From positions 448,776-512,775 of the forward strand of contig CP179889.1 in NCBI GenBank assembly GCA_047456315.1: a stretch of DNA of 64,000 bases. Direction: 5' to 3'. Positions 3,023 to 61,670 of the stretch are shown piece by piece (positions within the stretch are counted from its first letter, which is position 1; each line of letters begins with the position of its first letter). The notes under the pieces were generated by a model. That model was not told where the DNA came from. It did not search any database and saw nothing but the letters and a program-made list of their open reading frames with translations. Both the position numbers and the translations under genes were made by a program. Origin of the DNA: Candidatus Nealsonbacteria bacterium (GTDB lineage Bacteria; Patescibacteriota; Minisyncoccia; Minisyncoccales; JANBVM01).

Positions 3023-3589
3023 CTACTTGATTATCACTTTGTAGGTCAGGATTTTAATCGGTTCTCCCACCCAAGATCTCTCGTAAGAAAACCTTATTTC
3101 TACATCTCCTTTTTTCAGAGTAAGGAATTTGAAAAATTCTTGCCCTCCGACGCCAAAGGGAACTTCTATCTCTGACTCTTCTGAGCCTTCAATTCCTACA
3201 ACTCCTTCATCGATTTGATTCTGCACCAATTGTTCTTGAGCCTGATTGCTGTCAATAATGTCTCTTGCTCCATCCGAAGCGCCAGGCGATTGAATTCTCC
3301 CCTTTTCCAAAGACATTGACATTCTTGTATTTTCCTGAAAATCAGGGACATAATTTTTTTCAATCAGTTGAAGATAGTTTTGATCAAACTCTATTGTCCA
3401 CTGATAGCCAGTAGTAAGATTGGCCTCCAAAACTATTTCAAAGTCCTCGCCAACCTCCTTTTCTATTATTTGAATGCCGGCGTCTCTTGTGCTTTCTGTT
3501 GCTGGAGCAACGATATAATGGTTTGCTCCGTAGCTTACACCGACAACAATAAGCAATGAAATAAAGACAGTAATGATTAACTTTAACAT
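3023..3589 (-). CDS. Chagasin-family (I42) cysteine-peptidase inhibitor-like secreted protein
   Basis: 188 aa with a signal/anchor helix. NLTTGYQW matches the chagasin NPTTGYxW motif. C-terminal GVGGQEFFKFLTLKKGDVEIRFSYERSW matches the family's G.G...F.F.....G...I.F.Y.R.W pattern. Confidence 0.7.
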   Translation of the reverse strand: MLKLIITVFISLLIVVGVSYGANHYIVAPATESTRDAGIQIIEKEVGEDFEIVLEANLTTGYQWTIEFDQNYLQLIEKNYVPDFQENTRMSMSLEKGRIQSPGASDGARDIIDSNQAQEQLVQNQIDEGVVGIEGSEESEIEVPFGVGGQEFFKFLTLKKGDVEIRFSYERSWVGEPIKILTYKVIIK

Positions 3590-7168: not shown

Positions 7169-7765
7169 TCACTGTTTTTTCTCTGCTAAGCGTATATATT
7201 TAATAAGTCTAAAACCATCAATTAGTTCAATAGGCTTATCTTCTGTAAATTGCTTAGCTTCAAGCGTAAATTTGTTTGTGGTTATAAAGTATCCTTTACC
7301 ATCAGCTAAATGGTCAGCAATAGCTCCGTAAAACTCTCTTAGTGCCACTACGCCAACCTTTGAGCTAGTATATTTCTTACATTGAATATAATGTTTGATG
7401 CCGTCTTTTTCGGCAATCACATCAATTCCGCCATTGATGTGAGCACCAGTCACTTTTGTTTTGTATCCGAGCCTTGAAAATAAATCAGCAATATATTGCT
7501 CAAATTCCCCAAAATTCATTCCTTGCAGCCAATGCAATAATTCTCTATCAGAACGCCACCGCTTGCCTTTCTTAAATTTTGCTTTTTTCCAAAAAGTACT
7601 ACCAACAAAGATAATTATAACAACAGCGGCTCCGTATGTAACCCAGTGCCAAAAATTAGCCCTATCTGTAAACCACAGAAGAAGTACATAGATAATATAA
7701 AAAATGCCCAACCTCCACAAAGTATCAAGAACAATATCGCTTAATGAATTTTTTCTTCTTGCCAT
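7169..7765 (-). CDS. Membrane-anchored Mrr-like restriction endonuclease domain protein
   Basis: 198 aa with two N-terminal TM helices. FEQYIADLFSRLGYKTKVTG...GGIDVIAEKDG..HYIQCKKY matches the Mrr_cat D-(D/E)xK core. Confidence 0.7.
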   Translation of the reverse strand: MARRKNSLSDIVLDTLWRLGIFYIIYVLLLWFTDRANFWHWVTYGAAVVIIIFVGSTFWKKAKFKKGKRWRSDRELLHWLQGMNFGEFEQYIADLFSRLGYKTKVTGAHINGGIDVIAEKDGIKHYIQCKKYTSSKVGVVALREFYGAIADHLADGKGYFITTNKFTLEAKQFTEDKPIELIDGFRLIKYIRLAEKKQ

Positions 7766-7934: not shown

Positions 7935-9059
7935 TTAAACGTTTAAAAACTCTACCACCTCTACTACTGCCAATTCCAAAGGCAACTGTGGTATTGAAGC
8001 ATATCTTATCTTATTTTGAGCTTCAAGAAAAGTGCTTAAAATTTTTCTTAAATCTTCTTGCTCAAACAATGACATTTGCTTTTTAAGCACAACTATTTCT
8101 TCCTTTGTCAAACCAGTCAAATAATCTTCTGAACTCACAGGATTCCCCTCCCCCATTATTTTCAAAATCAATCCTTTTCTCAAATAATTAATCAAACTTT
8201 TAGAAAATTCTTCTAAATCCAAACCCTTCTCACTAACTTCATTTAAATAATGAATAGCTTCAAAAGTTTTTTTATTACTCAAAAAACCAGTAAATTTACT
8301 GACCATTTCAATTTCCACCAATCCTAATAAATCCTTAATATCTTCAGCTTTAATTTCATTTTTAGAACCATCATAAAGAATTGCAACCTGATTTAACAAA
8401 CCTTCAGCATCTCTCATAGCGCCTGAAGAATTTAAAGCAATTAATTCCAGAGCTGGTTCTCCAATCTTAATGTTTTCTTTTTTTGAAAGAATCAACAATC
8501 TTTTAATAATTTCAGGTAAAGTGGATTTTCTAAAATCAAACCTCTGGCATCTTGAAATGATTGTTGAAATCATTTTATGAATCTCTGTTGTAGCTAAAAC
8601 AAAAATAGCATGAGCTGGAGGCTCTTCCAGTGTTTTTAAAAGCGCATTAGCTGCTTCTTTAGTTAATTGATGAGATTCATCAATTATAAATACTTTGTAC
8701 TTTGATTTTGTTGGAGAAAACCTAATTCCGTCTTTTAACTCCCTTATATCATCAATTCCCCTATGGGATGCTGCATCAATTTCAATTAAATCCATTGCCT
8801 GTCCTTTCACAATTTCATTACAAGAAGAGCACTTGTTGCAGGGTTCAAATTGTCCTTGCTTTCTGTTTTCACAATTAACAGCCTTAGCCAACAAACGAGC
8901 TATTGTTGTTTTTCCTGTTCCTTTTGGCCCGGAAAACAAATAAGCATGAGAAACCGTTTCAGAAGAAATTGCATTAGTTAATGTTTTAACAACATGTTGC
9001 TGGCCAATAATTTCAGCAAAGGTCTGAGGACGATATTTACGATATAAAACGAGAGTCAT
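7935..9059 (-). CDS. dnaX: DNA polymerase III subunit gamma/tau (short form)
   Basis: 374 aa. YRPQTFAEIIGQ, Walker A GPKGTGKTT, zinc module CNKCSSC, DExH-like IIDESHQL, SRC sensor ISRCQRF. Confidence 0.9.
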   Translation of the reverse strand: MTLVLYRKYRPQTFAEIIGQQHVVKTLTNAISSETVSHAYLFSGPKGTGKTTIARLLAKAVNCENRKQGQFEPCNKCSSCNEIVKGQAMDLIEIDAASHRGIDDIRELKDGIRFSPTKSKYKVFIIDESHQLTKEAANALLKTLEEPPAHAIFVLATTEIHKMISTIISRCQRFDFRKSTLPEIIKRLLILSKKENIKIGEPALELIALNSSGAMRDAEGLLNQVAILYDGSKNEIKAEDIKDLLGLVEIEMVSKFTGFLSNKKTFEAIHYLNEVSEKGLDLEEFSKSLINYLRKGLILKIMGEGNPVSSEDYLTGLTKEEIVVLKKQMSLFEQEDLRKILSTFLEAQNKIRYASIPQLPLELAVVEVVEFLNV

Positions 9060-9063
9060 TTTT

Positions 9064-9660
9064 CTATTTTTTAAATACTATGAATTTGTAACCCAGGAAG
9101 TTCCAGACAAAACCAGTAAAAACAGCAGTCATATTTGCAGCACTTGCCCACATCCTTTCGCTTACTCCGAATCTTACGCCAATAATGTTTAGCACAATAT
9201 AAATAACCGTGGTGTGGATTAAAAGCCCTCCAATCGTTATAAGGAAAAACTGCGCTGCCTCTTTGGTTTTATTCTCAGTATCCTTTTTTTGAAAAGTCCA
9301 GAATTTATTCCAAAAGTATGAATTTACTGCTCCACAACTGAAAGATACAGTTTTAAACAAAACAGGCAGCCAGCCAGAAGTAATGGAAAAAAACCATATT
9401 AAGCAATCAAATACTCCCATATCAATGGAACTATTTAATATTCCAACCAAAAACGATTTTCCAAATTGTATAAGAGTGCGAGTTCTTTTAAAAACAGTTT
9501 CTAAAACCCAGACGCCCAGTAAAGACAAAACAGGTAGAAATACTGGAAAATATTTTAATACTTGCTCAGGAAGAATTCCTGTAAAAAGGGCAACATTGGG
9601 CAAGATAAGTCCACATACTAAACCAATGATTAGAGAAGCTAAAATATCTGCTTTTTTCAT
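9064..9660 (-). CDS. GtrA-family membrane protein
   Basis: 198 aa with four TM helices. Terminal WNFLGYKFIVF motif is typical of GtrA-like proteins. Confidence 0.65.
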   Translation of the reverse strand: MKKADILASLIIGLVCGLILPNVALFTGILPEQVLKYFPVFLPVLSLLGVWVLETVFKRTRTLIQFGKSFLVGILNSSIDMGVFDCLIWFFSITSGWLPVLFKTVSFSCGAVNSYFWNKFWTFQKKDTENKTKEAAQFFLITIGGLLIHTTVIYIVLNIIGVRFGVSERMWASAANMTAVFTGFVWNFLGYKFIVFKK

Positions 9661-9766: not shown

Positions 9767-10663
9767 TTAATACGTATATAGTAAGTTAAATTTCTCTAAT
9801 TCTTTAGCCCGAGTTCGTAATGTCACTTCAGTTACACCATTAGCTTTGGCTATCTCTTTCTGGGTTTTCTTTTCTCCATTATTTTTGCAGAGGAGATATA
9901 AAAGGCCTGCTATTAATCCTTTTACACTTTTACCCGAAAAATCTTCTTTTATCTCAGTAAATATCTTTAAGGTTAGTTTTTGAGTTTTTATAGAAATGCC
10001 AGTAGTTTCTGAAACAGTGGAGATGTATTTTGCCAAGTTTTGAGACTGCTTCTTTTGTTCAAATATTTTAATTAAATTTGCATACTCTCTAAAAATAGAT
10101 TTCAGTCTGATTTGAGTGAGCTTTGAAATCTCTTTTATTGGATTTGGATTTCCTTCTTTTTTATAGAGAAAGCAAAAAGCAGCTGCCCCCAACACTCTAA
10201 AACTTTTACCACGAGCATCAACTTTTTTCAGAACTTTTGTAAAAAATAACTTAAGTTCTTTTTTAAACACATTTGTGATTCTAAATTCGGGTGAAATTTG
10301 ACGTAAAACTTGATTAAGTTCTATTATTGCAGCTTGTAGTCTCCTTTCTTCATTATCTTTAAAACCACTATACTTTCGTAATCTTCCCATTGTGGACCGC
10401 GTTATGGAAGGAATTTCATTTCCTGAAGAATCAAGGTTTTTACGATCTATATAGCTTCCTAGGTTTCCATAGTGGGTTATGGTTCTTACAGGATATTCTG
10501 GACCATGGCCTTTTTGTTTTATACCTCCCTTTAAATCTATTTCTTTGTATGAGACCACAAGACCGCATCTTGGACAAACGGTTTGGGCTTCTTTTTCCTG
10601 TAAAATTAGATTTTTATTTTCGCATTCTGGACATATTTCAGTAAAATCAATCATTTGCATCAC
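9767..10663 (-). CDS. Transcription factor B / TFIIB-like protein (archaeal-type), full length
   Basis: 298 aa. N-terminal Zn ribbon CPECENKNLILQEKEAQTVCPRCGLVV; linker MGRLRKY; cyclin repeat 1 ARGKSFRVLGAAAFCFLYKKEGNPNPIKEIS; cyclin repeat 2 with HTH FSGKSVKGLIAGLLYLLCKNNGEKKTQKEIAKANGVTEVTLRTRAKELEK. Collinear with archaeal TFB along its whole length, judged from the Pyrococcus TFB sequence as I recall it. Confidence 0.8.
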   Translation of the reverse strand: MMQMIDFTEICPECENKNLILQEKEAQTVCPRCGLVVSYKEIDLKGGIKQKGHGPEYPVRTITHYGNLGSYIDRKNLDSSGNEIPSITRSTMGRLRKYSGFKDNEERRLQAAIIELNQVLRQISPEFRITNVFKKELKLFFTKVLKKVDARGKSFRVLGAAAFCFLYKKEGNPNPIKEISKLTQIRLKSIFREYANLIKIFEQKKQSQNLAKYISTVSETTGISIKTQKLTLKIFTEIKEDFSGKSVKGLIAGLLYLLCKNNGEKKTQKEIAKANGVTEVTLRTRAKELEKFNLLYTY

Positions 10664-10730
10664 TTATTCTTTTTTAAAAGTATTATATATAAATCATATA
10701 ACGTTTCTTAGTGTAATAAATTTCTTAATT

Positions 10731-10758
10731 TTGTCAAATAGTTAAAATTTATTATAAT
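10731..10758 (+). promoter_or_regulatory. Sigma-70-type promoter for cysS (TTGTCA-N16-TATAAT)
   Basis: TTGTCA at 10731-10736, TATAAT at 10753-10758, 18 nt upstream of the ATG at 10776. Confidence 0.45.
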
Positions 10759-10775
10759 AAACCCAGATATAATCT

Positions 10776-12182
10776 ATGTTAAAATTATACAACACATTAA
10801 CTCGTAAAAAAGAAGCTTTTAAGCCCTTTAAAAAAGGAAGGGCTGGGCTTTATACTTGCGGCATCACAGCTTATTGGTTTCCACACATTGGAAATTTAAG
10901 AACCTATCTTTTTGAAGACATTTTAAAAAGAGTTCTCAATTACAACAAGTATAAAGTAAAACACGTAATGAATATTACTGATGTAGGTCATTTAACTTCT
11001 GATGCTGATACAGGGGAGGATAAAATGATAAAAGCTTTAAAAAGAGAAGGAAAAAAAATGAACGAAAAATCAATACTTGAAATCGCTGATTTTTACACAA
11101 AAGCTTTTAAAAAAGATTTAAAAAACTTGAATATTATAGAACCAGATATCTGGTGCAAGGCAACAAAACACATCAAAGAGCAGATTGACATGATTAAAAA
11201 GCTTTTGAAAAACGGTTATGCTTATGAAACAGAAGAAGCAGTATATTTTGACACTTTAAAGTTTAAAGATTACGCAAAATTGGCAAAGTTAAATTTAAAA
11301 GGATTAAAAGAAGGCGCAAGAGCTGAAAAAAGAACAAATAAAAAAAATCCAACAGATTTTGCTTTGTGGTTGAAGCTTGTTGGAGAGCACAAAAATCACA
11401 TTATGAACTGGGATTCTCCTTGGAGCAAGGGTTTTCCAGGCTGGCATATTGAATGTTCAGCAATGAGTATAAAATATTTAGGAAAAGAATTTGATATTCA
11501 CTGCGGAGGAATTGACCATATTCCTATCCATCACACCAATGAAAGAGCTCAGAATATTGGCGCATACAATCATCCAGTAGTAAAAATATGGCTTCATGGA
11601 GAGTTTTTAATTTTAAAAAAAGGCAAAATGGCAAAATCAGAAGGAAACATTGTTATCTTAGATGAGTTAATTAAAAAAGGGTTTGACCCCCTTGCCTATC
11701 GTTACTTAACTCTTAATGCCCATTATCGTTCAAAACTTACTTTTTCCTGGAAAATCTTAGAGTCAGCCCAGAATGCGCTGGAGAATTTATATGAAAAAGT
11801 AAGAGAATTAAAGAAAAACAAAGGTAAAAAATCAAACAAGAAAAAATTTAATAAGTACAAGAATAAATTCCTGGAATATATAAATGACGATTTAAATATT
11901 CCTAATGCATTAGCCCTAACTTGGAACTTAATTAAGGATAAAGATTTATCAAACAAAGATAAATACAGGCTTTTACTTGATTCTGATAAAGTTTTTGGCT
12001 TAGAACTAGATAAAGTAAAAGAAATAAGAATTCCTCAAAAAGTAAAAGATTTAGTTAAAAAAAGAGAAGAATTTAGAAAAAAAGATGATTGGAAAAAATC
12101 TGATGAATTAAGAAAACAAATTGAAGATATGGGATATAAGATTGAGGATACTGAAAAAGGACCAAAACTAAAAAAACTTTAA
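10776..12182 (+). CDS. cysS: Cysteine--tRNA ligase
   Basis: 468 aa. Class I HIGH variant (FPHIGNLRTY), GWHIECSAM zinc site, KMAKSEGN (KMSKS). Confidence 0.92.
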   Translation: MLKLYNTLTRKKEAFKPFKKGRAGLYTCGITAYWFPHIGNLRTYLFEDILKRVLNYNKYKVKHVMNITDVGHLTSDADTGEDKMIKALKREGKKMNEKSILEIADFYTKAFKKDLKNLNIIEPDIWCKATKHIKEQIDMIKKLLKNGYAYETEEAVYFDTLKFKDYAKLAKLNLKGLKEGARAEKRTNKKNPTDFALWLKLVGEHKNHIMNWDSPWSKGFPGWHIECSAMSIKYLGKEFDIHCGGIDHIPIHHTNERAQNIGAYNHPVVKIWLHGEFLILKKGKMAKSEGNIVILDELIKKGFDPLAYRYLTLNAHYRSKLTFSWKILESAQNALENLYEKVRELKKNKGKKSNKKKFNKYKNKFLEYINDDLNIPNALALTWNLIKDKDLSNKDKYRLLLDSDKVFGLELDKVKEIRIPQKVKDLVKKREEFRKKDDWKKSDELRKQIEDMGYKIEDTEKGPKLKKL

Positions 12183-13482: not shown

Positions 13483-16122
13483 GTGAATATGGTTAATCAA
13501 CTACCAAACAAATTACCTCCTCAATCTATTGAAGCTGAGCAATCAGTATTGGGCTGCTTAATGATCGACAAGGCAACAATTATTAGGATTGCTGATTTTT
13601 TAAAACCAGAAGATTTTTACAAAAAAAGCCATCAGGAAATCTACAAGGTTTGTTTAAAGCTTTTTGAAAAAGATGAAGCAATTGATTTTTTAGCTGTCTC
13701 AAATAAATTAAAGGAAAAAGGTGTTTTTGAAGAAATTGGCGGAAACGCATATCTTACTGAGCTGATAAATACTGTTCCTACTCCAGTCAATGCTTTTAAC
13801 TACGCCAAAATAGTTTCCAAGAAAAGGGTTTTAAGGGATTTAATTGATGCCTCTTATGAAATAGGCCAGCTAGGATATGAAGAAGAAGAAGAGACAGATA
13901 CTCTTTTGGATAGAGCTGAAAGGAAAATATTCAGCATTGCCCAAAAAAGTTTATCCCAGGATTTTATACTAGTTAAAGATGACTTAGAAGAAGCGTTTGA
14001 AAGAATTGACCAATTATCAAAGCACAAAGGAGGATTAAGGGGTCTTGCCAGCGGGCTTCCTGATTTAGACAATATTTTAGCTGGTTTTCAAAAATCCGAT
14101 TTATTAATTTTAGCTGCCAGACCCAGTTTGGGAAAATCGGCGTTAGCTCTAAACTTTGCATACAATATTGCAGTTAACCAGAAAATTCCAGTTGGTATAT
14201 TTTCTTTAGAAATGTCAAAAGACCAGGTAATTGACAGGTTGATTTCAAGCATTTCTGGGGTGGACTTATGGCGACTAAGAACTGGCAGATTATCAAGCGA
14301 AGGTGAAGACAATGACTTTACGAGAATCCAGCAATCACTGGCAGTTTTATCAGATGCTCCAATCTATATTCACGACTCATTATGCTCTAATGTTTTGCAG
14401 ATGAAAGCAATGTCCAGACGACTTCAATCTAAAAAAGGGCTGGGCTTAATTATAATTGACTACTTGCAACTTATGGAACCAATGGATATAAAGGCCAATC
14501 CAGTTCAACAGGTATCTGAGAACTCACGTGCTCTAAAATCATTAGCCCGAGAGTTAAATATTCCTGTTTTAGTTGTATCACAATTATCTCGAGCGGTTGA
14601 ACAGCGCTCTCCTCAAATTCCAAGATTAGCTGATTTAAGACAATCAGGATGTTTAACCGGAGATACTCTGATTTCAAGAGCAGATAGCGGGGAACAAATT
14701 CCCATAAAAGAATTAGTGGGCAAAAGCGATATTCCAATATTTGCATTAGGACACGATTACAAATTACATATTAGAAAAATGACAAAAGTATTTTATTCTG
14801 GCAAAAAAATGGTATACGAGTTAAAAACAAGAAGTGGCAGAAAAATAAAGGCTTCTGCCAACCATCCGTTTTGGAAAACGAGCGGTTGGACACGACTTGA
14901 CGAGCTTAAAGTTGGCGACTGCATTGCCACACCTAAAGAATTAAAAATCAGTGCTGCCAAAAATGAACTATTAAGAGAGGAAATTATCCTTTTAGCTCAC
15001 CTTTTGGGTGATGGTTGCATCTTGCCGCGTCAACCCTATCACTACACCAATACCGACCAAGAAAATATTAAAGTTGTGGCTGAAACCGCTGCTAAGCTGT
15101 TTGGTATTAAACCTAAAATTGTAAAACAAAAAAACTGGTGGCATGTTTATTTAACCAGTCCTCGTCGTTTAACTCATGGGAAATATCATCCCATCACTGA
15201 ATGGTATAAATCATTAGAAATCAAAAGGGTTCGCTCTTGGGAGAAAAAGATTCCTCAAAAAGTATTCTCTTTGGACAACGAGCATTTAGCCTTATTTCTG
15301 AAGCATCTTTGGGCAACTGATGGAAGTATCACCTTAAAACCATTACGAAACAAAAAAACCCAATGCAGTATCTACTATTCAAGCACAAGCCATCAGCTGG
15401 CTGTGGGGGTCAAACATTTATTGTTAAGATTTGGTATTAGAAGTAAAATTTCCGAAAAAAGAAAAGAAAATTATCGAATTTGTTATACCGTCTCTATTTA
15501 TGGAAAAGAGCATCAGCTAAACTTTTTTGAAAAAATTGGATGTTTTGGCAAAAGAGGCAGAATTATACCGCAATTAATTGAAAAATTAAATAAAACAAAA
15601 TCAAACACCATTCTTGATGTTTGGCCCAAAGAAACTTGGCAATTTATTATCAATCCACTAAGGAAAGAGCAAGGCATATCTTGGCGCGATTTCAGCGCTG
15701 GTATTAATACCACTTATTACGGAACTGCTCTTTTAAAACATGGAATTGGAATGGAACGGATGCAAAAAATTGCTCAATATTTGCAATCATCACTTATTGT
15801 CAATATGGCGCAAGCTAATATTTTTTGGGACGAAATTGTTTCCATAAAACCCTTATGTGTGCAAAAAGTTTATGACGCTACAGTGGCAGGGCTGCACAAT
15901 TTTGTTGCTAACGGAATCATTGTCGAAAATTCAATTGAACAGGATGCGGACGTAGTTATGTTTATTTACAAAGAAGATAGGTACAGGCCTGAAACCTCAC
16001 GAAAAAATATTGCTGATTTAATTATTGCTAAGCACCGTAATGGTCCTGTTGGAAGAGTTGAATTATATTTTGATGAAGGAAGAGTGAGCTTTAGAAGCCT
16101 GGAAAAAACCTTTGAAGAGTAA
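13483..16122 (+). CDS. dnaB: Replicative DNA helicase DnaB interrupted by an intein
   Basis: 879 aa. N-terminal PPQSIEAEQSVLGC, Walker A ARPSLGKSALALN, IIIDYLQLM, extein resumes at SIEQDADVV..IAKHRNGP. GTG at 13483 or ATG at 13489 as start. Confidence 0.92.
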   Translation: MNMVNQLPNKLPPQSIEAEQSVLGCLMIDKATIIRIADFLKPEDFYKKSHQEIYKVCLKLFEKDEAIDFLAVSNKLKEKGVFEEIGGNAYLTELINTVPTPVNAFNYAKIVSKKRVLRDLIDASYEIGQLGYEEEEETDTLLDRAERKIFSIAQKSLSQDFILVKDDLEEAFERIDQLSKHKGGLRGLASGLPDLDNILAGFQKSDLLILAARPSLGKSALALNFAYNIAVNQKIPVGIFSLEMSKDQVIDRLISSISGVDLWRLRTGRLSSEGEDNDFTRIQQSLAVLSDAPIYIHDSLCSNVLQMKAMSRRLQSKKGLGLIIIDYLQLMEPMDIKANPVQQVSENSRALKSLARELNIPVLVVSQLSRAVEQRSPQIPRLADLRQSGCLTGDTLISRADSGEQIPIKELVGKSDIPIFALGHDYKLHIRKMTKVFYSGKKMVYELKTRSGRKIKASANHPFWKTSGWTRLDELKVGDCIATPKELKISAAKNELLREEIILLAHLLGDGCILPRQPYHYTNTDQENIKVVAETAAKLFGIKPKIVKQKNWWHVYLTSPRRLTHGKYHPITEWYKSLEIKRVRSWEKKIPQKVFSLDNEHLALFLKHLWATDGSITLKPLRNKKTQCSIYYSSTSHQLAVGVKHLLLRFGIRSKISEKRKENYRICYTVSIYGKEHQLNFFEKIGCFGKRGRIIPQLIEKLNKTKSNTILDVWPKETWQFIINPLRKEQGISWRDFSAGINTTYYGTALLKHGIGMERMQKIAQYLQSSLIVNMAQANIFWDEIVSIKPLCVQKVYDATVAGLHNFVANGIIVENSIEQDADVVMFIYKEDRYRPETSRKNIADLIIAKHRNGPVGRVELYFDEGRVSFRSLEKTFEE
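14650..15930 (+). mobile_element. DnaB intein with LAGLIDADG homing-endonuclease domain (427 aa)
   Basis: Starts at Cys (CLTGDTLIS) right after ..DLRQSG. Block B SANHPF. LAGLIDADG-type motifs LLAHLLGDGCI and FLKHLWATDGSI. Ends HNFVANGIIVEN followed by +1 Ser (SIEQD). Removal leaves a 452-aa DnaB. Confidence 0.88.
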
Positions 16123-34042: not shown

Positions 34043-35032
34043 TTATTTTTTAACTCTTGCAAAACGATACTTTTTAAACTGATCTTTAAAAAATCTAAAT
34101 CTCGAGTAACCCTCTTCTCTTAGTATTTTTTCAATAGCACTCTTCTGCTGCGGGTCAAACTCAAGATAAATAACACCTTGCTTTTTTAAAAATATCCTGG
34201 CAAGGCCTAAAAACTTTCTAATATGGTTTAGCCCTTTTTGACCTGAAAAAAGAGCTTTCTGAGGTTCATACTCTAAAACTGAATCCCCTACTTCATCTGT
34301 TCTTTGCTTAGCCACATAAGGAGGATTAGCAAAAATATAGGCATATTTTTTATTCTTTAATCCTTTGAACAAATCTGACTGATATATCTCATATCTTTGA
34401 GAAAGAACTTTATTTAGTTTCAAATTTATTCTGATCTGCTCAAGAGCTTTTTTATCAATATCAGAAAAATCTACACTGCTTGTTTTAATCTTCTTTAAAA
34501 CAGCAACACCAATACATCCAGAACCGGCAAACATGTCTAAAACCTTTAAATCTTTTGTTTGTTTAATTTCCTTGATTGCTTTTTTAACCCAAAACTCTGT
34601 TTCAATCCTTGGGATAAAAACTTTTTTTGATAAATCAATCTCACAATTTAAGAATTTTACCCTTCCTTTAGTATATTCTTCAGGAATATCAGCTTTGAAA
34701 TCATGCTTTAATTCCCATAAAATATCTTCTGGTATTGGAGGCGGCTGTCTTTTTGGACTTATTCCAGGATAACGCCAGGCAGTAATAATTTTTGTTATTC
34801 TCTTATACTTCTGATACATTAACCAGATTTCAGTAGGATGTTTCTTTGTTCCAGTTTTCTCCATTACTGCCACAGTTTTTGGGGCAATTCCAAGCTCTTT
34901 TCTGTCTGGGTTACGCAGCACTCTTTTCAATCGGTTTTCAGATAAGCGATAATATCTCATTTTATCTCTAACATGCCTTGTCCAATAAAATCTCTCTTGT
35001 TGAGAAATAAGTTTCATAATTATAAGATTCAA
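34043..35032 (-). CDS. prmC: Release-factor glutamine N5-methyltransferase (PrmC/HemK core) fused to a DUF4258-like N-terminal domain
   Basis: 329 aa. C-terminal part: FIPRIETE, VLDMFAGSGCIGVA, IFANPPYV. The N-terminal ~100 aa (FYWTRHVRDKMRYYRLSENRLKRVLRNPD..IWLMYQ..ITAWRY) resembles small DUF4258-type proteins. Confidence 0.75.
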   Translation of the reverse strand: MNLIIMKLISQQERFYWTRHVRDKMRYYRLSENRLKRVLRNPDRKELGIAPKTVAVMEKTGTKKHPTEIWLMYQKYKRITKIITAWRYPGISPKRQPPPIPEDILWELKHDFKADIPEEYTKGRVKFLNCEIDLSKKVFIPRIETEFWVKKAIKEIKQTKDLKVLDMFAGSGCIGVAVLKKIKTSSVDFSDIDKKALEQIRINLKLNKVLSQRYEIYQSDLFKGLKNKKYAYIFANPPYVAKQRTDEVGDSVLEYEPQKALFSGQKGLNHIRKFLGLARIFLKKQGVIYLEFDPQQKSAIEKILREEGYSRFRFFKDQFKKYRFARVKK

Positions 35033-35854
35033 CTATTCCAATAAAAGCTCTGCCTCTTTAACCAGTTTATCTAGTTCCTTTGACGATAGATTCAGTTTTT
35101 TAACAAGCTGGTTTAAAGAAAGATCTAAAAGGTTTAAAACAAGCATCATTTTCTTCTCTGCAAAAATATTCTTAAAGTGGGGCTTAAAAGAAGGAAGAAT
35201 GGTAATAGGATAAAGATTGTATTCTTCTATCATATACTCAAGCCCTTTGCCTCTTGGATATTTCCAGCCCAAAAGACCAACACCGTAACACTCACAATAA
35301 TTAATTGCCTCACTGGTAAATTTAGCATTTGTTACTATTATTGTTTTTGAGTTCTTAAATTTAGGATTATTTGAAATATCTAAAAACCTTGCGTAATTAT
35401 ATAGTGCCACCTTTAAATCAACTCTTGCTCCAGCAGAAGTATGATATTTGCATTCACCAAGGTGAAACAGCTTGTCTTTTTGAGCCAAGAAATCTATTTC
35501 ATATGATGATATACATTTACCAGCTATAATTTGATTGGTTTTTACTTTAAAACCATTTCTTGAAAAAATCTCAGCAATGTATTTTTCAAAATCAAAACCA
35601 CTGGGACCAAGCCTTCTCATGGCCTGTTTTAAAGAAAACTTCATTGACGCAGCTGGAGATTCTTTTAAAAGCTTTTTGACGAGCCTATATATCTCAGAGG
35701 TTTTAATTTCAGGGTAAATCTTTTTTTCAATATCATGAGCAATTCTTTTTGCCAACTTATCTGAAGCTCCTGCTCTTTTTGAAGAACGATATACTTTATC
35801 AAAAGAGAAAAGTTCTTTCTCTCTTCTTGCATTAACTACGTAAATTTTTTTCAT
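35033..35854 (-). CDS. ATP-cone domain protein with restriction-endonuclease (Mrr_cat-like) domain
   Basis: 273 aa. N-terminal ATP-cone pattern (IYVVNARREKELFSFDKVYRS..), then FEKYIAEIFSRNGFKV...YEIDFLAQKD..LGECKYH. Confidence 0.65.
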   Translation of the reverse strand: MKKIYVVNARREKELFSFDKVYRSSKRAGASDKLAKRIAHDIEKKIYPEIKTSEIYRLVKKLLKESPAASMKFSLKQAMRRLGPSGFDFEKYIAEIFSRNGFKVKTNQIIAGKCISSYEIDFLAQKDKLFHLGECKYHTSAGARVDLKVALYNYARFLDISNNPKFKNSKTIIVTNAKFTSEAINYCECYGVGLLGWKYPRGKGLEYMIEEYNLYPITILPSFKPHFKNIFAEKKMMLVLNLLDLSLNQLVKKLNLSSKELDKLVKEAELLLE

Positions 35855-40002: not shown

Positions 40003-40598
40003 TTTATTAAAAATTCATGATAGTTATCACCTTTAAAAGGACACTTGGTTTCTTCACAAGTTATCTCGCCTCTTAGGACCATTCTCATCACACTATAGAT
40101 ATATCCTTTCATACTCAAGCAGTGATAAGGGTGAAGTTTAAAATTCTTGATTCTTAGAACAGCATATTTTTCCTCCTTATTTAATTCAACCATTTCCAGA
40201 TCTCCAATAGAATAAAGTTTTCTCCATATCTTTGGGGCTGCCTTGGCAGCTGATTCAATGGAAACAAAATACTTCATGAAAAGTCTTAAAATTAAAGAAA
40301 GTTTTGAATTAAACTCTCCTAATTCTTCAAACTCCCTATCAGTAAAATTAAACAGTTTTTTAATCACTAAAAAAAGAATTACCTCTAGACCCACTGGATA
40401 AAACTCCATGTTTCTCATTTTTTCATAATTTATTGGATAACCAAGGTTTCTCATTTCATCTTCAATTTTCTTTAGAGCTTCTTTGCCTTTTTTATCAATT
40501 ACATAATCAATATCACCTTTAATTGAAATTCCTCTTGTTTCTCCTTTCATTTTCATTAACTCATCAGCTATTTTTTTTGTAATAATATCTTCTACCAT
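39996..40598 (-). CDS. Paralogue 2 of a 200-aa putative ligand-binding protein (V4R/DUF2378-like, tentative)
   Basis: 200 aa. C-terminus HCLSMKGYIYSVMRMVLRGEITCEETKCPFKGDNYHEFLIKW recalls V4R-type domains. Roughly half of positions are identical to the upstream copy by eye. Confidence 0.6.
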   Translation of the reverse strand: MVEDIITKKIADELMKMKGETRGISIKGDIDYVIDKKGKEALKKIEDEMRNLGYPINYEKMRNMEFYPVGLEVILFLVIKKLFNFTDREFEELGEFNSKLSLILRLFMKYFVSIESAAKAAPKIWRKLYSIGDLEMVELNKEEKYAVLRIKNFKLHPYHCLSMKGYIYSVMRMVLRGEITCEETKCPFKGDNYHEFLIKW

Positions 40599-41191
40599 TT
40601 TATTAAAAACTGATGATAATTATCACCTTTAAAAGGACACTTGGTTTCTTTACAGTCAGTATCTTTATTAACAACCATTTTAACCACATTGGCAAAATAT
40701 CCTTCAAGCATCCGGCAATGAGGTGAATGAATCTTAAAATTTTTAATCTCTAAAACAACATATTTTTCTTCTTCGTTTAGCTCTGTAACTTTAAAATATC
40801 CTATATTGTAATACTTTCTCCACATAATTGGCGCTTTCTGAGCTATTACCTGCATAGAAACAAAATATTTCATAAAAAGCTTAACAATCAAAGAAATCTT
40901 TGACTGATACTCACCTATTTCTCTTAACTTTTCATCACTAAGATTAAAAAGCTCTCTTACAACTAAAAGCGTTACAGCTTCCAGTCCTATTGGATAAAAA
41001 CTCATTGGCTTCATACTCTTATACTTTACTATCTGACCAAGCTCTGCCATCTTATCTTCTACTTTCTTAAAAACCTCTTCTCCTTTTTCCTCAACAACAA
41101 ACTGAACATGACTTTTAGGAGCAATCCCCCTCACCTCTCCTTTGATTTTCATCAATTCATCAGCTATTTTTTTTGTAATTTTTTCTTCCAT
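40592..41191 (-). CDS. Paralogue 1 of a 200-aa putative ligand-binding protein (V4R/DUF2378-like, tentative)
   Basis: 199 aa. C-terminus HCRMLEGYFANVVKMVVNKDTDCKETKCPFKGDNYHQFLIKW. 7-nt overlap with paralogue 2. Confidence 0.6.
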   Translation of the reverse strand: MEEKITKKIADELMKIKGEVRGIAPKSHVQFVVEEKGEEVFKKVEDKMAELGQIVKYKSMKPMSFYPIGLEAVTLLVVRELFNLSDEKLREIGEYQSKISLIVKLFMKYFVSMQVIAQKAPIMWRKYYNIGYFKVTELNEEEKYVVLEIKNFKIHSPHCRMLEGYFANVVKMVVNKDTDCKETKCPFKGDNYHQFLIKW

Positions 41192-59444: not shown

Positions 59445-61670
59445 TTAGTGTTTTCTTTTCAAAACCACGATTACAACCATTGCAATAATTGCAATAATCG
59501 GCGCAAAAAGTGGAAACGCTACACCTATAGAAGCTGGATTCCCAGAATTATCATTGTTGTTTACGGTCACAATCACCGTATCTGTAGCAGAATTACCAAG
59601 TAAATCCCGAACAACAATTGTATAATCATATGAACCAGAAAGTAATCCATCGACATTAATTGTTATTGGAATGCCAGAAGTCCAAACACCAGAAGTAATT
59701 TCTATGTCATTTCTGTAGATAGTATAGGTGTGAGGATTGTCATCGGTAACGAACCAAGTTATGTTGTGATTTGTTGTTCCTTGTTTATAAGTGATGTCAT
59801 CAGGGCTGTCCAGAACCGGAGGAATAGTATCTCTCACAACAATTACTACAGGAACAGAAACCGACACATCTCCATCAATATCAGTTACGGTTAGGATCAC
59901 TGTGTATTTTCCAGGAACAGTAAACTGATGCACTGGGCTCTGAACAGTCGAATTTGCTAAACTATCTCCAAAGTTCCATTGGTAAACTAATGGCATCTTT
60001 CCACCAGTAGTTGTATCATTGAATTCGACACTCTCACCCGCTGCAATATCTGTAGCATTGACGCTAAAGGATGCTATCAAAATCAGAATACAAGTATTAT
60101 TGTATATATTGTTGTTTTCTCCGAAGTCCTTTAGACACCCATCACTGTTTTTTATCAAAGAATTACTAAAAATCTCGTTGTAATCGGAAGAACTAAGATA
60201 GATACCGTAACCAAAGTTCCTTGCGCAGATATTTTCAGTTATGATGTTGTAGTCGGAAGCCCAAAGATGCATGCCATCATTATCGTTGCCTGTACAATTA
60301 TTCCCTGTTACGATATTGTAGTTGGAAAAGTGGAAATAAATACCATTATTAGAATTCCCTGTACAATTGTTTCCAGTGACAGTGTGGTAACCCTGGTTTC
60401 CTAAGAAAATACCGCTGTCACTATTGTTCATGCAGTTATTTTTCCTTACCGTGTTATTATAACCCCCTACAGAGATACCGCTATCATAAATACCCTCGCC
60501 ATTATCCGTGCAGTTATTCCCCATAACAGTATTGTGACTAGACATCTCAAGAAGGACACCATCATTAGAGTTCATTGAACAGGTGTTGCCAGTTATATTA
60601 TTATAGTCAGAATCCCAATAGAAATGAATACCAGCACCAGAATTCCCTGTACAATTGTTTCCAATAACAATGTTATAACTTGAACTCTTGCCATAGATAC
60701 CAGCTTCATAGTGAATACCACGATTGCCCGTGCAGTGATTGCTTCTTAGGATATTATGGTTAGATTCTTTAAGATATATGCCGCTGTCAGAGTTCCTTGC
60801 ACAGGTATTTTCAGTCAAGATATTGTGGTTAGAATAATAGTAGAGATAAATACCATAACCATTATCTGTGCAGATGTTGTCTGTTACATTGTTGTAGCCA
60901 GAGTAGTGAAGATAGATGCCGAAATAATTGTCTGCGCAGGTGTTGTTAATTATAGTGTTGCAGTTAGAGTATTCAAGAAGGATGCCGTAACGATAATTAT
61001 TTGTGCAGGTGTTGTTGATTATAGTATTATTGTTGGAGCAGTAGAGATAGATGCCGCGATGATCATTGTATGCGCAGATATTGTTAACTACAGTGTTATT
61101 GTCGGAGTAGTAAAGATAGATGCCGGAACCATAATTGTTTGCATAATTGTTTACACATGTGTTGTTAACTATAATGTTACAGTTGGAGTAGTATAGAAGG
61201 ATGCCGTAATAACCATTATCTTTATTTTTGCAGGTGTTGTTGATTATTGTCCCGTTTCCTACATAATGCAATCCAATTCCTGCACCTCCATAATTAAAAA
61301 CTGTACAGTTCTCAATTCGGAAGTATTCCATAGTATTATTGATGAAAATACCGTATTCACTGCTGGCGTTAATAACCAAATCTTGGATAATATACGGATC
61401 GTTGTAGGTGCCTGAACCAGTACACCAATCGTATGTTGCACACGTCTCAGACCAATTGCCATCCACATAAATTCCAGTATTAGTAATCGTGCTCATAGAA
61501 GGAATCTTAGTAATCGTAAATCTAGATACGTCTGTAGAACTTTCAACAATGTTCCCTATCGGATAACCAATAGGTATCAACAGAAAAAGCATTATCATAG
61601 TCCATAGAAGCGCTATTTCACCAATGTTTTTTCCTCTTATCTTTCTTATTAGTTTTTTCAAAATTATCAA
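59445..61670 (-). CDS. Large surface protein: right-handed beta-helix (PbH1/NosD-like) repeats, PKD domain, Ig-like domain, C-terminal TM anchor
   Basis: 741 aa. Signal anchor, then more than 15 repeats of the type NNTC..N...GI.L..S..N.I..N. PKD block YQWNFGDS...HQFTVPGKYTVILTVTD. C-terminal hydrophobic helix plus KRKH. Very rich in N-x-S/T sequons. Confidence 0.8.
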   Translation of the reverse strand: MIILKKLIRKIRGKNIGEIALLWTMIMLFLLIPIGYPIGNIVESSTDVSRFTITKIPSMSTITNTGIYVDGNWSETCATYDWCTGSGTYNDPYIIQDLVINASSEYGIFINNTMEYFRIENCTVFNYGGAGIGLHYVGNGTIINNTCKNKDNGYYGILLYYSNCNIIVNNTCVNNYANNYGSGIYLYYSDNNTVVNNICAYNDHRGIYLYCSNNNTIINNTCTNNYRYGILLEYSNCNTIINNTCADNYFGIYLHYSGYNNVTDNICTDNGYGIYLYYYSNHNILTENTCARNSDSGIYLKESNHNILRSNHCTGNRGIHYEAGIYGKSSSYNIVIGNNCTGNSGAGIHFYWDSDYNNITGNTCSMNSNDGVLLEMSSHNTVMGNNCTDNGEGIYDSGISVGGYNNTVRKNNCMNNSDSGIFLGNQGYHTVTGNNCTGNSNNGIYFHFSNYNIVTGNNCTGNDNDGMHLWASDYNIITENICARNFGYGIYLSSSDYNEIFSNSLIKNSDGCLKDFGENNNIYNNTCILILIASFSVNATDIAAGESVEFNDTTTGGKMPLVYQWNFGDSLANSTVQSPVHQFTVPGKYTVILTVTDIDGDVSVSVPVVIVVRDTIPPVLDSPDDITYKQGTTNHNITWFVTDDNPHTYTIYRNDIEITSGVWTSGIPITINVDGLLSGSYDYTIVVRDLLGNSATDTVIVTVNNNDNSGNPASIGVAFPLFAPIIAIIAMVVIVVLKRKH

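Follow-up and report, generated by a model that had tools for sequence, protein, structure and literature searches.

The TFB/TFIIB family is regarded as a hallmark of transcription initiation in archaea and eukaryotes, setting it apart from the sigma-based system of bacteria. In archaeal transcription factor B (TFB), the zinc ribbon binds the dock of RNA polymerase (RNAP), the B-reader and B-linker reach into the cleft, and the second cyclin repeat reads the B recognition element (BRE) (PMC7289017). A divergent member of the family, TFB3 of Sulfolobus, activates transcription in trans together with canonical TFB (PMC7289017). Moreover, a distant homology between TFB and the sigma70 family has been proposed, with equivalent placement of the two on RNAP (PMC4581349). 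Here we analyze a TFB-like gene in a 64,000-nucleotide (nt) stretch of contig CP179889.1 (positions 448,776 to 512,775; referred to below as the window) from a Candidatus Nealsonbacteria bacterium, a member of the Candidate Phyla Radiation (CPR), and find that a bacterial lineage retains TFB under selection, at one chromosomal location and in two forms.

The TFB-like coding sequence occupies positions 9767 to 10663 on the minus strand and specifies 298 amino acids (aa) from a GTG at 10663; the open reading frame (ORF) listing agrees exactly with the original prediction on this point, and profile and structure matches support the assignment. Based on homology with the 5' regions of orthologs, the likelier start is the ATG at 10654, which gives a 295-aa product identical to XOB40926.1, named at NCBI as 'MAG: TFIIB-type zinc ribbon-containing protein [Candidatus Nealsonbacteria bacterium]'. 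We found that profile searches recovered both TFIIB domains above cut-off, with the Pfam TFIIB repeat (PF00382) at 50.1 bits in two stretches (cut-off 23.6) and the TFIIB zinc ribbon (PF08271) at 36.3 bits (cut-off 29). The NCBIfam TFB profile (NF001658) aligned collinearly with the protein (residues 7-291 to profile positions 12-304), at a score of 131.8 bits that falls below its cut-off of 384. By sequence, the closest solved structures are the core of Pyrococcus woesei TFB (1D3U_B/1AIS_B; E 2.5e-16) and human TFIIB. An AlphaFold2 model (predicted local distance difference test score, pLDDT, 79.2) comprises a ribbon and a linker helix, followed by two cyclin folds of five helices each, and the top Foldseek matches of this model in the PDB are TFIIB in Pol II pre-initiation complexes and the complex of P. 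woesei TFB with TATA-binding protein (TBP) and DNA, followed by Brf. Thus, Pfam, the NF001658 alignment, the model and Foldseek agree on what had been proposed, a full-length, collinear TFB homolog in a bacterial genome. The ribbon, RG(K/R)S-type and helix-turn-helix (HTH) motifs quoted for it are likewise all present (CPEC...CPRC, ARGKS...AAAFCFLY, SGKS...IAGLLYLL and TQKEIAKANGVTEVTLRTRAKEL). We conclude that the window ORF encodes a genuine member of the TFB/TFIIB family, comprising a C4 zinc ribbon, two cyclin folds and an HTH of archaeal type. In Pfam and NCBIfam searches of the protein, neither a region 2 nor a region 4 domain of sigma scored above threshold (Sigma70_r4, 12.2 bits, cut-off 24.1; TIGR02937, 15.2 bits, cut-off 42.9), and its N-terminal sequence has no evident signal peptide. 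A role as a component of a defense system was considered and rejected, as PADLOC returned no match for the protein.

The modules of the window protein differ greatly in their identity to archaeal TFBs, from 66% in the repeat-2 HTH through 42% in the ribbon and 24% in cyclin 1 to 10% in the segment equivalent to the B-reader. The N-terminal C4 zinc ribbon (B-ribbon; residues 11-37, CPEC...CPRC; 10553..10633, minus strand, as are all the modules that follow) is matched by PF08271 and modeled with strands at residues 20-39, and its cysteines are conserved across the clade of the window protein; P0004 and its relatives have lost one of them. The B-reader-equivalent segment (residues 38-65, KGGIKQKGHGPEYP; 10469..10552) replaces the canonical 'GPEWRAF..E...RSR' in alignments; it is 7-10 residues shorter than archaeal B-readers, is 8-10% identical to them, and has a pLDDT below 50 at residues 41-59 and 61-65. 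The B-linker-like segment (residues 66-100, LGSYID..DSSG..I.P....RLRK; 10364..10468), defined by alignment and including a modeled helix at residues 86-98, shares D78, G81, R94 and L95 with archaea at an overall identity of 33%. Cyclin repeat 1 (residues 104-201; 10061..10354) is modeled as five helices with a pLDDT of about 90 and bears the clade-specific motif AAAFCFLYKKEGNPNPIK. In this subfamily, the invariant residues C164, Y167, N174, I176 and G253 occupy positions at which archaea have invariant Y, C, R, L and A, respectively, and the archaeal-type cyclin-1 surface (the RGRS loop and ..Y.ACR..g.PRtL.EI) is not kept. Cyclin repeat 2 (residues 210-292, likewise modeled as a five-helix bundle with a pLDDT of about 90; 9788..10036) matches the best PF00382 stretch (residues 204-291), and its HTH (TQKEIAKANGVTEVTLRTRAKEL; 9797..9865), which aligns to 1D3U_B as the equivalent of the BRE-reading HTH of archaeal TFB, is the best-conserved element of the protein, with T281, R283, R285 and K287 invariant or nearly so. 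Thus, the description of this gene as near-canonical and non-degraded holds in part: the gene is intact, selected and conserved in its HTH, but its B-reader has been replaced and its cyclin 1 has diverged strongly. This divergence is remodeling under constraint, not decay.

The host genome is unambiguously bacterial (CPR/Nealsonbacteria). The other products of the window include DnaX, CysS, GtrA, DnaB (with an intein), RecR, L21, a MurE-type ligase, FtsI/PBP, MraW and MraZ, as well as ClpB, MltG/YceG, TrmD, S16 and an extracytoplasmic function (ECF) sigma factor, and thus the bacterial surroundings that had been reported (dnaX, cysS, a sigma factor and dcw genes) were borne out. The window contains neither rpoB nor rpoC. 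The TFB-like gene lies in a conserved slot, with the divergently transcribed cysS (10776..12182, plus strand) as its left border and the co-directional gtrA-like gene (9064-9660) and dnaX (7935-9059) as its right border (7935..9660, minus strand). We found one to three TFB genes in this same slot in at least 15 distinct CPR genomes or contigs; the loci with the slot, besides that of the window, are L003 (CP179890.1), L001/L014, L005, L006, L007, L010/L011, L012, L015, L020, L021/22, L023, L028, L036, L037 and L004. The order cysS, TFB-like gene, gtrA, dnaX is common to the window, to CP179890.1, a different strain (96.6% nt identity), and to CAYVDD010000001.1, a different species (about 85%). 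An intermediate tier of relatives came from an exhaustive HMMER search, after which their contigs were inspected for the slot; a narrow-pattern scan of named genomes yielded two CPR species representatives and under-samples the taxonomic breadth. Across the genomes with the slot, DnaX is 63-83% and RecR 58-80% identical, and the TFB-like proteins are 30-64% identical to the window protein. Thus, the gene is not a singleton: close and distant relatives keep it, and a chimera or contamination is ruled out since independent assemblies share the same junctions.

Across the clade, the slot reads cysS, one to three TFB genes, optionally a gene for a pyridoxal-phosphate enzyme (PALP), and then gtrA-dnaX. 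The PALP gene stands between the TFB gene or genes and gtrA at L005 (10963-11799), L010 (7317-8201), L012 (11539-12426), L015, L023 and L004 (a short contig on which TFB adjoins the PALP gene also present in L005); at L028 it stands on the opposite side, between cysS and the TFB gene, and the slot of the window has none. Slot content is therefore variable, because the presence and the side of the PALP gene differ among genomes.

Comparison of CysS from the window (10776-12182), L005 (8492-9892), L006, L010, L015, L023, L028, L036 and L037 revealed two types that adjoin the TFB slot at the same position, about 37% identical between types and 60-83% within, one with a DALR_2 and the other with a CysS_C domain. 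The pattern looks as if cysS had been exchanged in situ for a xenolog in part of the clade. GtrA of L036 and L037 are 51% identical (dS 1.75), compared to 97-98% for the flanking genes (dS 0.04-0.10), and DnaX of the window and CP179890.1 are 85.6% identical, compared to 97-100% for their neighbors; these gtrA and dnaX divergences are a signal of local recombination around the slot.

Two subfamilies of TFB occupy the slot. The canonical CPR copies (P0118, P0385, P0115, L010a, L028 and L036/37) keep the ribbon, the B-reader (GPEWRAF...RSR), the B-linker and both cyclin folds, with identity to archaeal TFBs of up to 71%; their B-readers are 51-56% identical to one another and about 50% identical to those of archaea, compared to 48% among archaea. 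In the B-reader-less subfamily, to which the window gene belongs, the reader is replaced by a shorter conserved motif, D..GG[IV]...P.YP. The zinc ribbon and the linker positions D78, G81 and RLRK persist in all copies, as does, most prominently, the HTH of repeat 2. Some copies (379-440 aa) carry a third cyclin/HTH repeat, namely L007 6179-7501 (P0118, 440 aa), L020 50-1354 (P0385), L021 1637-2938 (P0115) and L012 8353-9492. Among the 120 best matches of a search with P0118, all three repeats were covered only by P0385, P0386, P0116 and P0115 and by no named archaeal match; the two of these four whose context was inspected, P0385 and P0115, are CPR by that context. TFB genes also form tandem arrays, with three copies at L012 (8353-11546) and two, one canonical and one B-reader-less, at L010 (5181-7311). 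The third repeat and the replacement of the reader, both innovations specific to CPR, fit adaptation to a new cellular setting.

The original prediction had raised a recent transfer from DPANN or other archaea, but neither the recent timing nor a DPANN donor withstood analysis. We reject recent horizontal transfer: the slot is the same across diverged genomes, with synteny between genomes in which DnaX is 63-75% identical, and the TFB genes do not differ from flanking host genes in third-position GC content (GC3, 0.23-0.27), while GC is 40-50% at the archaeal loci closest to them. Moreover, the type of TFB tracks the host-gene tree, which we built from DnaX, DnaB, RecR and GT4. In this tree, the genomes with three-repeat TFBs form a clade (bootstrap 1.0), and genomes with canonical copies lie apart from those with B-reader-less copies only (support 0.815); L010/11 carry both types. 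A DPANN donor is unsupported, as the nearest named archaeal relatives are from Bathyarchaeia, Nitrososphaerota, Thermoproteota and Verstraetearchaeota. One archaeal locus, L035, carries both FtsZ and TBP, the latter 4 kb from its TFB, and is thereby confirmed as archaeal. A phage or viral origin was considered and rejected, as the only candidates were a TFB-like PHROG of unknown function and, in a scan of viral contigs (IMG/VR), two weak ribbon-only matches (L103/L104 8001-8276; 25% identity over residues 9-96).

Trees of TFB itself, built by neighbor joining (NJ) with bootstrap, place the B-reader-less group in one clade (0.86), with a support of 0.92 for the subclade of the window, and identify the three L012 copies as in-situ duplicates (1.0). 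The canonical CPR copies interleave with TFBs of the Bathyarchaeia/Nitrososphaerota/Thermoproteota type, to which they are 52-71% identical, and a single CPR clade was not recovered in the NJ tree (bootstrap 0.0). We attribute the missing monophyly to rate heterogeneity and the limits of NJ, an attribution that is unproven, and do not read it as multiple transfers because the slot and the host tree agree. The TFB genes are intact and under selection, with ratios of nonsynonymous to synonymous substitution (dN/dS) below 1: 0.42 for the window gene compared to L001 (0.06-0.19 for neighbors) and 0.26 for the canonical pair L036 and L028 (0.09-0.16 for neighbors). These results show that the capture predates the radiation of the clade, a Paceibacteria/Nealsonbacteria-like group of CPR, and that the gene has passed down by vertical descent in a single chromosomal slot. 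They are most simply explained by one ancient acquisition from a TACK/Bathyarchaeia-like archaeon, after which copies duplicated, diverged and were lost differentially.

The expression signals of these genes are bacterial in type. A promoter scan identified a sigma70-type promoter upstream of the window gene (TTGACA, 16 nt, TACACT; 10710..10737, minus strand), and a TTGACA-16/17-TAnnnT arrangement precedes 12 of the 14 copies that have enough upstream sequence. Copies in tandem arrays mostly have a TTGACA promoter of their own (L012c is without one). Thus, since the TFB genes have their own sigma70-type promoters, they would be read by the bacterial sigma70 holoenzyme. Several copies have a GGAGG-type Shine-Dalgarno sequence, which is degenerate in the window copy, and there is no terminator-like site between the TFB-like gene and gtrA-dnaX. 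Between the -10 box and the Shine-Dalgarno, we noted by eye a conserved 5'-leader element, CTTTTAAAAAAG (10669..10680, minus strand). Its consensus, G(C/T)TCTTTA(A/G)AA, is partly palindromic around TTTAAA and is found in most copies of both subfamilies; TTTAAA occurs at the equivalent position in 10 of 66 other window genes. The element could not be matched to an archaeal BRE plus TATA box on either strand, and we consider it a candidate operator or leader element.

Since archaeal TFB acts with TBP, we searched for this partner with P. woesei TBP (verified as 1PCZ_A) and the TBP of L035 as queries, which as a positive control matched archaeal loci. In the 331 kb of CPR loci around the slot, these queries matched no TBP, and the window shows no TBP-like coding potential, in agreement with the earlier observation there, and the precomputed neighbor annotations of the slot loci contain no TBP Pfam match. 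In a large-database search, the best 120 of 6,316 matches were archaeal, a result that neither finds nor excludes a CPR TBP. Literature searches combining TFIIB/TFB with CPR names, and TATA-binding protein with Parcubacteria, returned nothing relevant, and the only names in existence are automatic database names; as had been supposed, no characterized bacterial function for such a protein was found in the literature searched. The TFB family is known, while its stable residence in a bacterial lineage at a fixed locus, its third repeat and its reader-replaced subfamily appear new.

Our preferred reading, to which we assign a probability of about 45%, is that the window protein is a domesticated, DNA-binding and RNAP-contacting regulator or modulator of transcription in the bacterium itself. 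After its capture, the archaeal TFB became compositionally bacterial, gained sigma70 promoters, duplicated and diverged into the two forms. The window protein would be expressed in the cytoplasm of the bacterium under its own sigma70 promoter, possibly with its gene also serving as the first of a TFB-gtrA-dnaX transcript. It would bind DNA with the BRE-type HTH of cyclin repeat 2, which is strongly conserved, and its retained zinc ribbon and RLRK linker would engage a partner, for which the bacterium's own RNAP is the most plausible candidate. Because the canonical B-reader and the archaeal cyclin-1 surface are absent, the window protein would be unable to act as a classical factor of TBP-dependent initiation. 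The regulator may be autoregulated through the leader element that contains TTTAAA.

A number of observations weigh against such a regulator. First, the B-reader, the RGRS loop and the cyclin-1 surface of the canonical copies are as conserved as they are in archaea, which would not be expected of a plain DNA-binding regulator in a cell devoid of archaeal RNAP and TBP and suggests a partner in the RNAP cleft; TBP itself is likely absent from the TFB-carrying genomes, as judged from the 331 kb of CPR DNA and not from whole genomes. Second, we know of no precedent in which the ribbon or linker of a TFB binds a bacterial RNAP. Third, a search with the leader motif GTTCTTTAAAA gave 25 matches (12.6 expected), mostly inside ORFs, and no usable regulon; a DNA target, regulon or partner of the TFB-like protein was not identified. 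Finally, the TFB family evolves 2-3 times faster than its neighbors, with tandem duplication and turnover, a pattern that is also typical of host-interaction genes, and members of the Nealsonbacteria/Paceibacteria group live attached to archaea.

A more general proposal, which we consider possible but somewhat doubtful, is that the CPR TFB-family proteins still engage a multisubunit RNAP through ribbon, reader and linker, be it that of an archaeal host after delivery or the bacterium's own. If true, the host version would amount to cross-domain hijacking of transcription by an episymbiont, with the B-reader-less form of the window as a dominant-negative mimic, and the version with the bacterium's own RNAP would provide an archaeal-style, sigma-competing route of initiation or regulation inside a bacterium.

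The main rival, a serious one although we think it unlikely, is that the proteins are host-directed mimics of TFB, delivered into an archaeal host to bind its TBP, BRE DNA and RNAP dock. Canonical copies would redirect host transcription, and B-reader-less copies would act as dominant-negative competitors that form dead-end pre-initiation complexes. Host-like proteins of obligate symbionts are often effectors, such as the eukaryote-like proteins of Legionella, and Ca. Nealsonbacteria, like related Paceibacteria, live attached to methanogenic archaea, with attached hosts markedly low in ribosomal activity. Moreover, the canonical CPR copies have kept every module that contacts the archaeal pre-initiation complex, under purifying selection and at up to 71% identity despite long residence in bacteria; dN/dS is above that of neighbors, tandem duplication and paralog turnover are evident, and TFB homologs occur in viruses of prokaryotes (phrog_20431). 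However, the protein shows no signal peptide or recognizable secretion signal, and we know of no delivery system and saw none near the gene, which sits in a housekeeping slot and is probably cotranscribed with gtrA-dnaX in some genomes. In addition, the archaeal invariants of cyclin 1 are gone from the window protein (R to N174, with RGRS eroded in relatives), so that the binding of host TBP and DNA needed by a dominant negative is doubtful. The nearest archaeal TFBs are also of the Bathyarchaeia type, whereas the documented hosts are Methanothrix and Methanospirillum.

A sigma-like use of the protein, which would bind the bacterium's own core RNAP via ribbon, reader and linker, the topological counterparts of sigma regions 4 and 3.2, to serve a special class of promoters or to compete with sigma as a global switch, seems to us improbable. 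Published structural arguments that TFB and sigma hold equivalent positions on RNAP (PMC4581349) speak for it. Ribbon and linker are retained in all copies and the B-reader in canonical ones, the extra HTH-bearing repeats could allow promoters to be recognized independently of TBP, and the repeat-2 HTH gives weak Sigma70_r4 matches. However, there is no precedent for such a use, the window protein has no B-reader, and the search with the leader motif yielded no candidate promoter class. Furthermore, the TFB genes have sigma70-type promoters and the window encodes an ECF sigma factor, and canonical sigma-dependent transcription is therefore in place.

It is very improbable, in our judgment, that the TFB genes belong to a small imported archaeal module for promoter recognition, with archaeal-type partners (TBP or others) encoded elsewhere in the genome. 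Only about 10% of the 647.5-kb genome is in view, the large-database TBP result covers the best 120 of 6,316 matches, and cyclin 1 of the canonical copies is as conserved as in archaea. Nonetheless, neither the 331 kb of CPR DNA around the slot nor the neighbor annotations contain a TBP, the literature search found no paper linking TBP with Parcubacteria, and cyclin 1 of the window protein lacks the archaeal invariants. Lastly, the idea of a non-functional relic, recent contamination or an assembly chimera, prompted by a dN/dS 2-3 times that of neighbors, the ribbon cysteine missing from P0004 and its relatives and the degenerate Shine-Dalgarno of the window copy, is effectively refuted by intact ORFs with identical junctions across 15 or more independent genomes or contigs, which stem from different projects, a dN/dS well below 1, clade-specific invariants, conserved promoters and a GC3 equal to that of host genes.

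Other genes of the window merit a brief description. The window DnaB (13483-16122, plus strand; 879 aa) contains an intein with a LAGLIDADG homing-endonuclease domain, as does that of CP179890.1; the DnaB orthologs of L001, L005, L006, L007 and L012 are intein-free (450-456 aa). Two proteins have an Mrr-type restriction-endonuclease domain, one of which adds an ATP-cone and an AF1548-like C-terminal domain. These genes, along with an adjoining gene with a methyltransferase domain, were located by domain matches at 7169-7765, 35033-35854 and 34043-35032 (minus strand); the best Pfam match of the methyltransferase-domain gene is the MTS small domain, with weaker matches to DNA N6/N4 methylases. 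A chagasin-family (I42) peptidase inhibitor and a V4R-like protein (27.9 bits, below the cut-off of 31) are encoded at 3023-3589 and 40592-41191, respectively (minus strand); both families are encountered more often in archaea and in parasitic eukaryotes than in bacteria with small genomes. A 741-aa protein with NosD/beta-helix and PKD domains (59445-61670, minus strand) is a candidate surface or adhesion protein, possibly relevant to an episymbiotic lifestyle.

The CPR TFBs constitute a natural experiment on the capacities of a TFB that lacks its usual machinery or works with a bacterial RNAP, and as such they bear on the debate about sigma and TFB. They are also a candidate route by which ultra-small CPR bacteria could interfere with archaeal hosts, which have been reported to be low in ribosomal activity when colonized. 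The arrangement of cysS, TFB and gtrA-dnaX offers a clean marker locus for tracing gene flow from archaea to CPR, and the proteins, small and soluble-looking, should be amenable to assays with the available in vitro archaeal transcription systems.

Comparison with known systems places the window protein closest to archaeal TFB of the Bathyarchaeia/Nitrososphaerota/Thermoproteota type, with which it is collinear in zinc ribbon, linker, two cyclin folds and C-terminal HTH. Unlike archaeal TFB, the window gene is encoded by a bacterium and has a sigma70 promoter, and its product has no canonical B-reader and scores 131.8 bits with NF001658, below the cut-off of 384; and unlike the archaeal locus L035, where TBP lies 4 kb from TFB, no TBP is seen near the window TFB. 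The protein resembles Sulfolobus TFB3 as well as TFB2 of Pyrococcus and Thermococcus, which has a divergent B-finger; both are TFB-family proteins with lost or altered reader and linker elements that do not serve as the general initiation factor. However, TFB3 and TFB2 work beside a canonical TFB, TBP and archaeal RNAP, whereas the window region shows only a derived copy in a bacterial host, and TFB3 is truncated, whereas the window protein is full length.

Likeness to the sigma70 family is limited to Sigma70_r4, which is sub-threshold in the window protein (12.2 bits) and reaches 22-28 bits in canonical CPR copies; unlike sigma70 proteins, the window protein has a cyclin-like fold and a zinc ribbon, and a genuine ECF sigma factor is encoded elsewhere in the window. 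Eukaryotic TFIIB, Brf1/Brf2 and Rrn7 have the same fold and are the Foldseek matches next after TFB, but identity to them is about 20%, and the window protein has no C-terminal extension of the Brf or Rrn7 type; the third repeat of some CPR copies is a cyclin/HTH repeat, not a Brf homology block. Finally, the viral TFB-like family of unknown function (PHROG 20431) matches P0118 at 212.6 bits and the window protein at 60.2 bits; unlike the viral genes, those of CPR are chromosomal, syntenic and vertically inherited.

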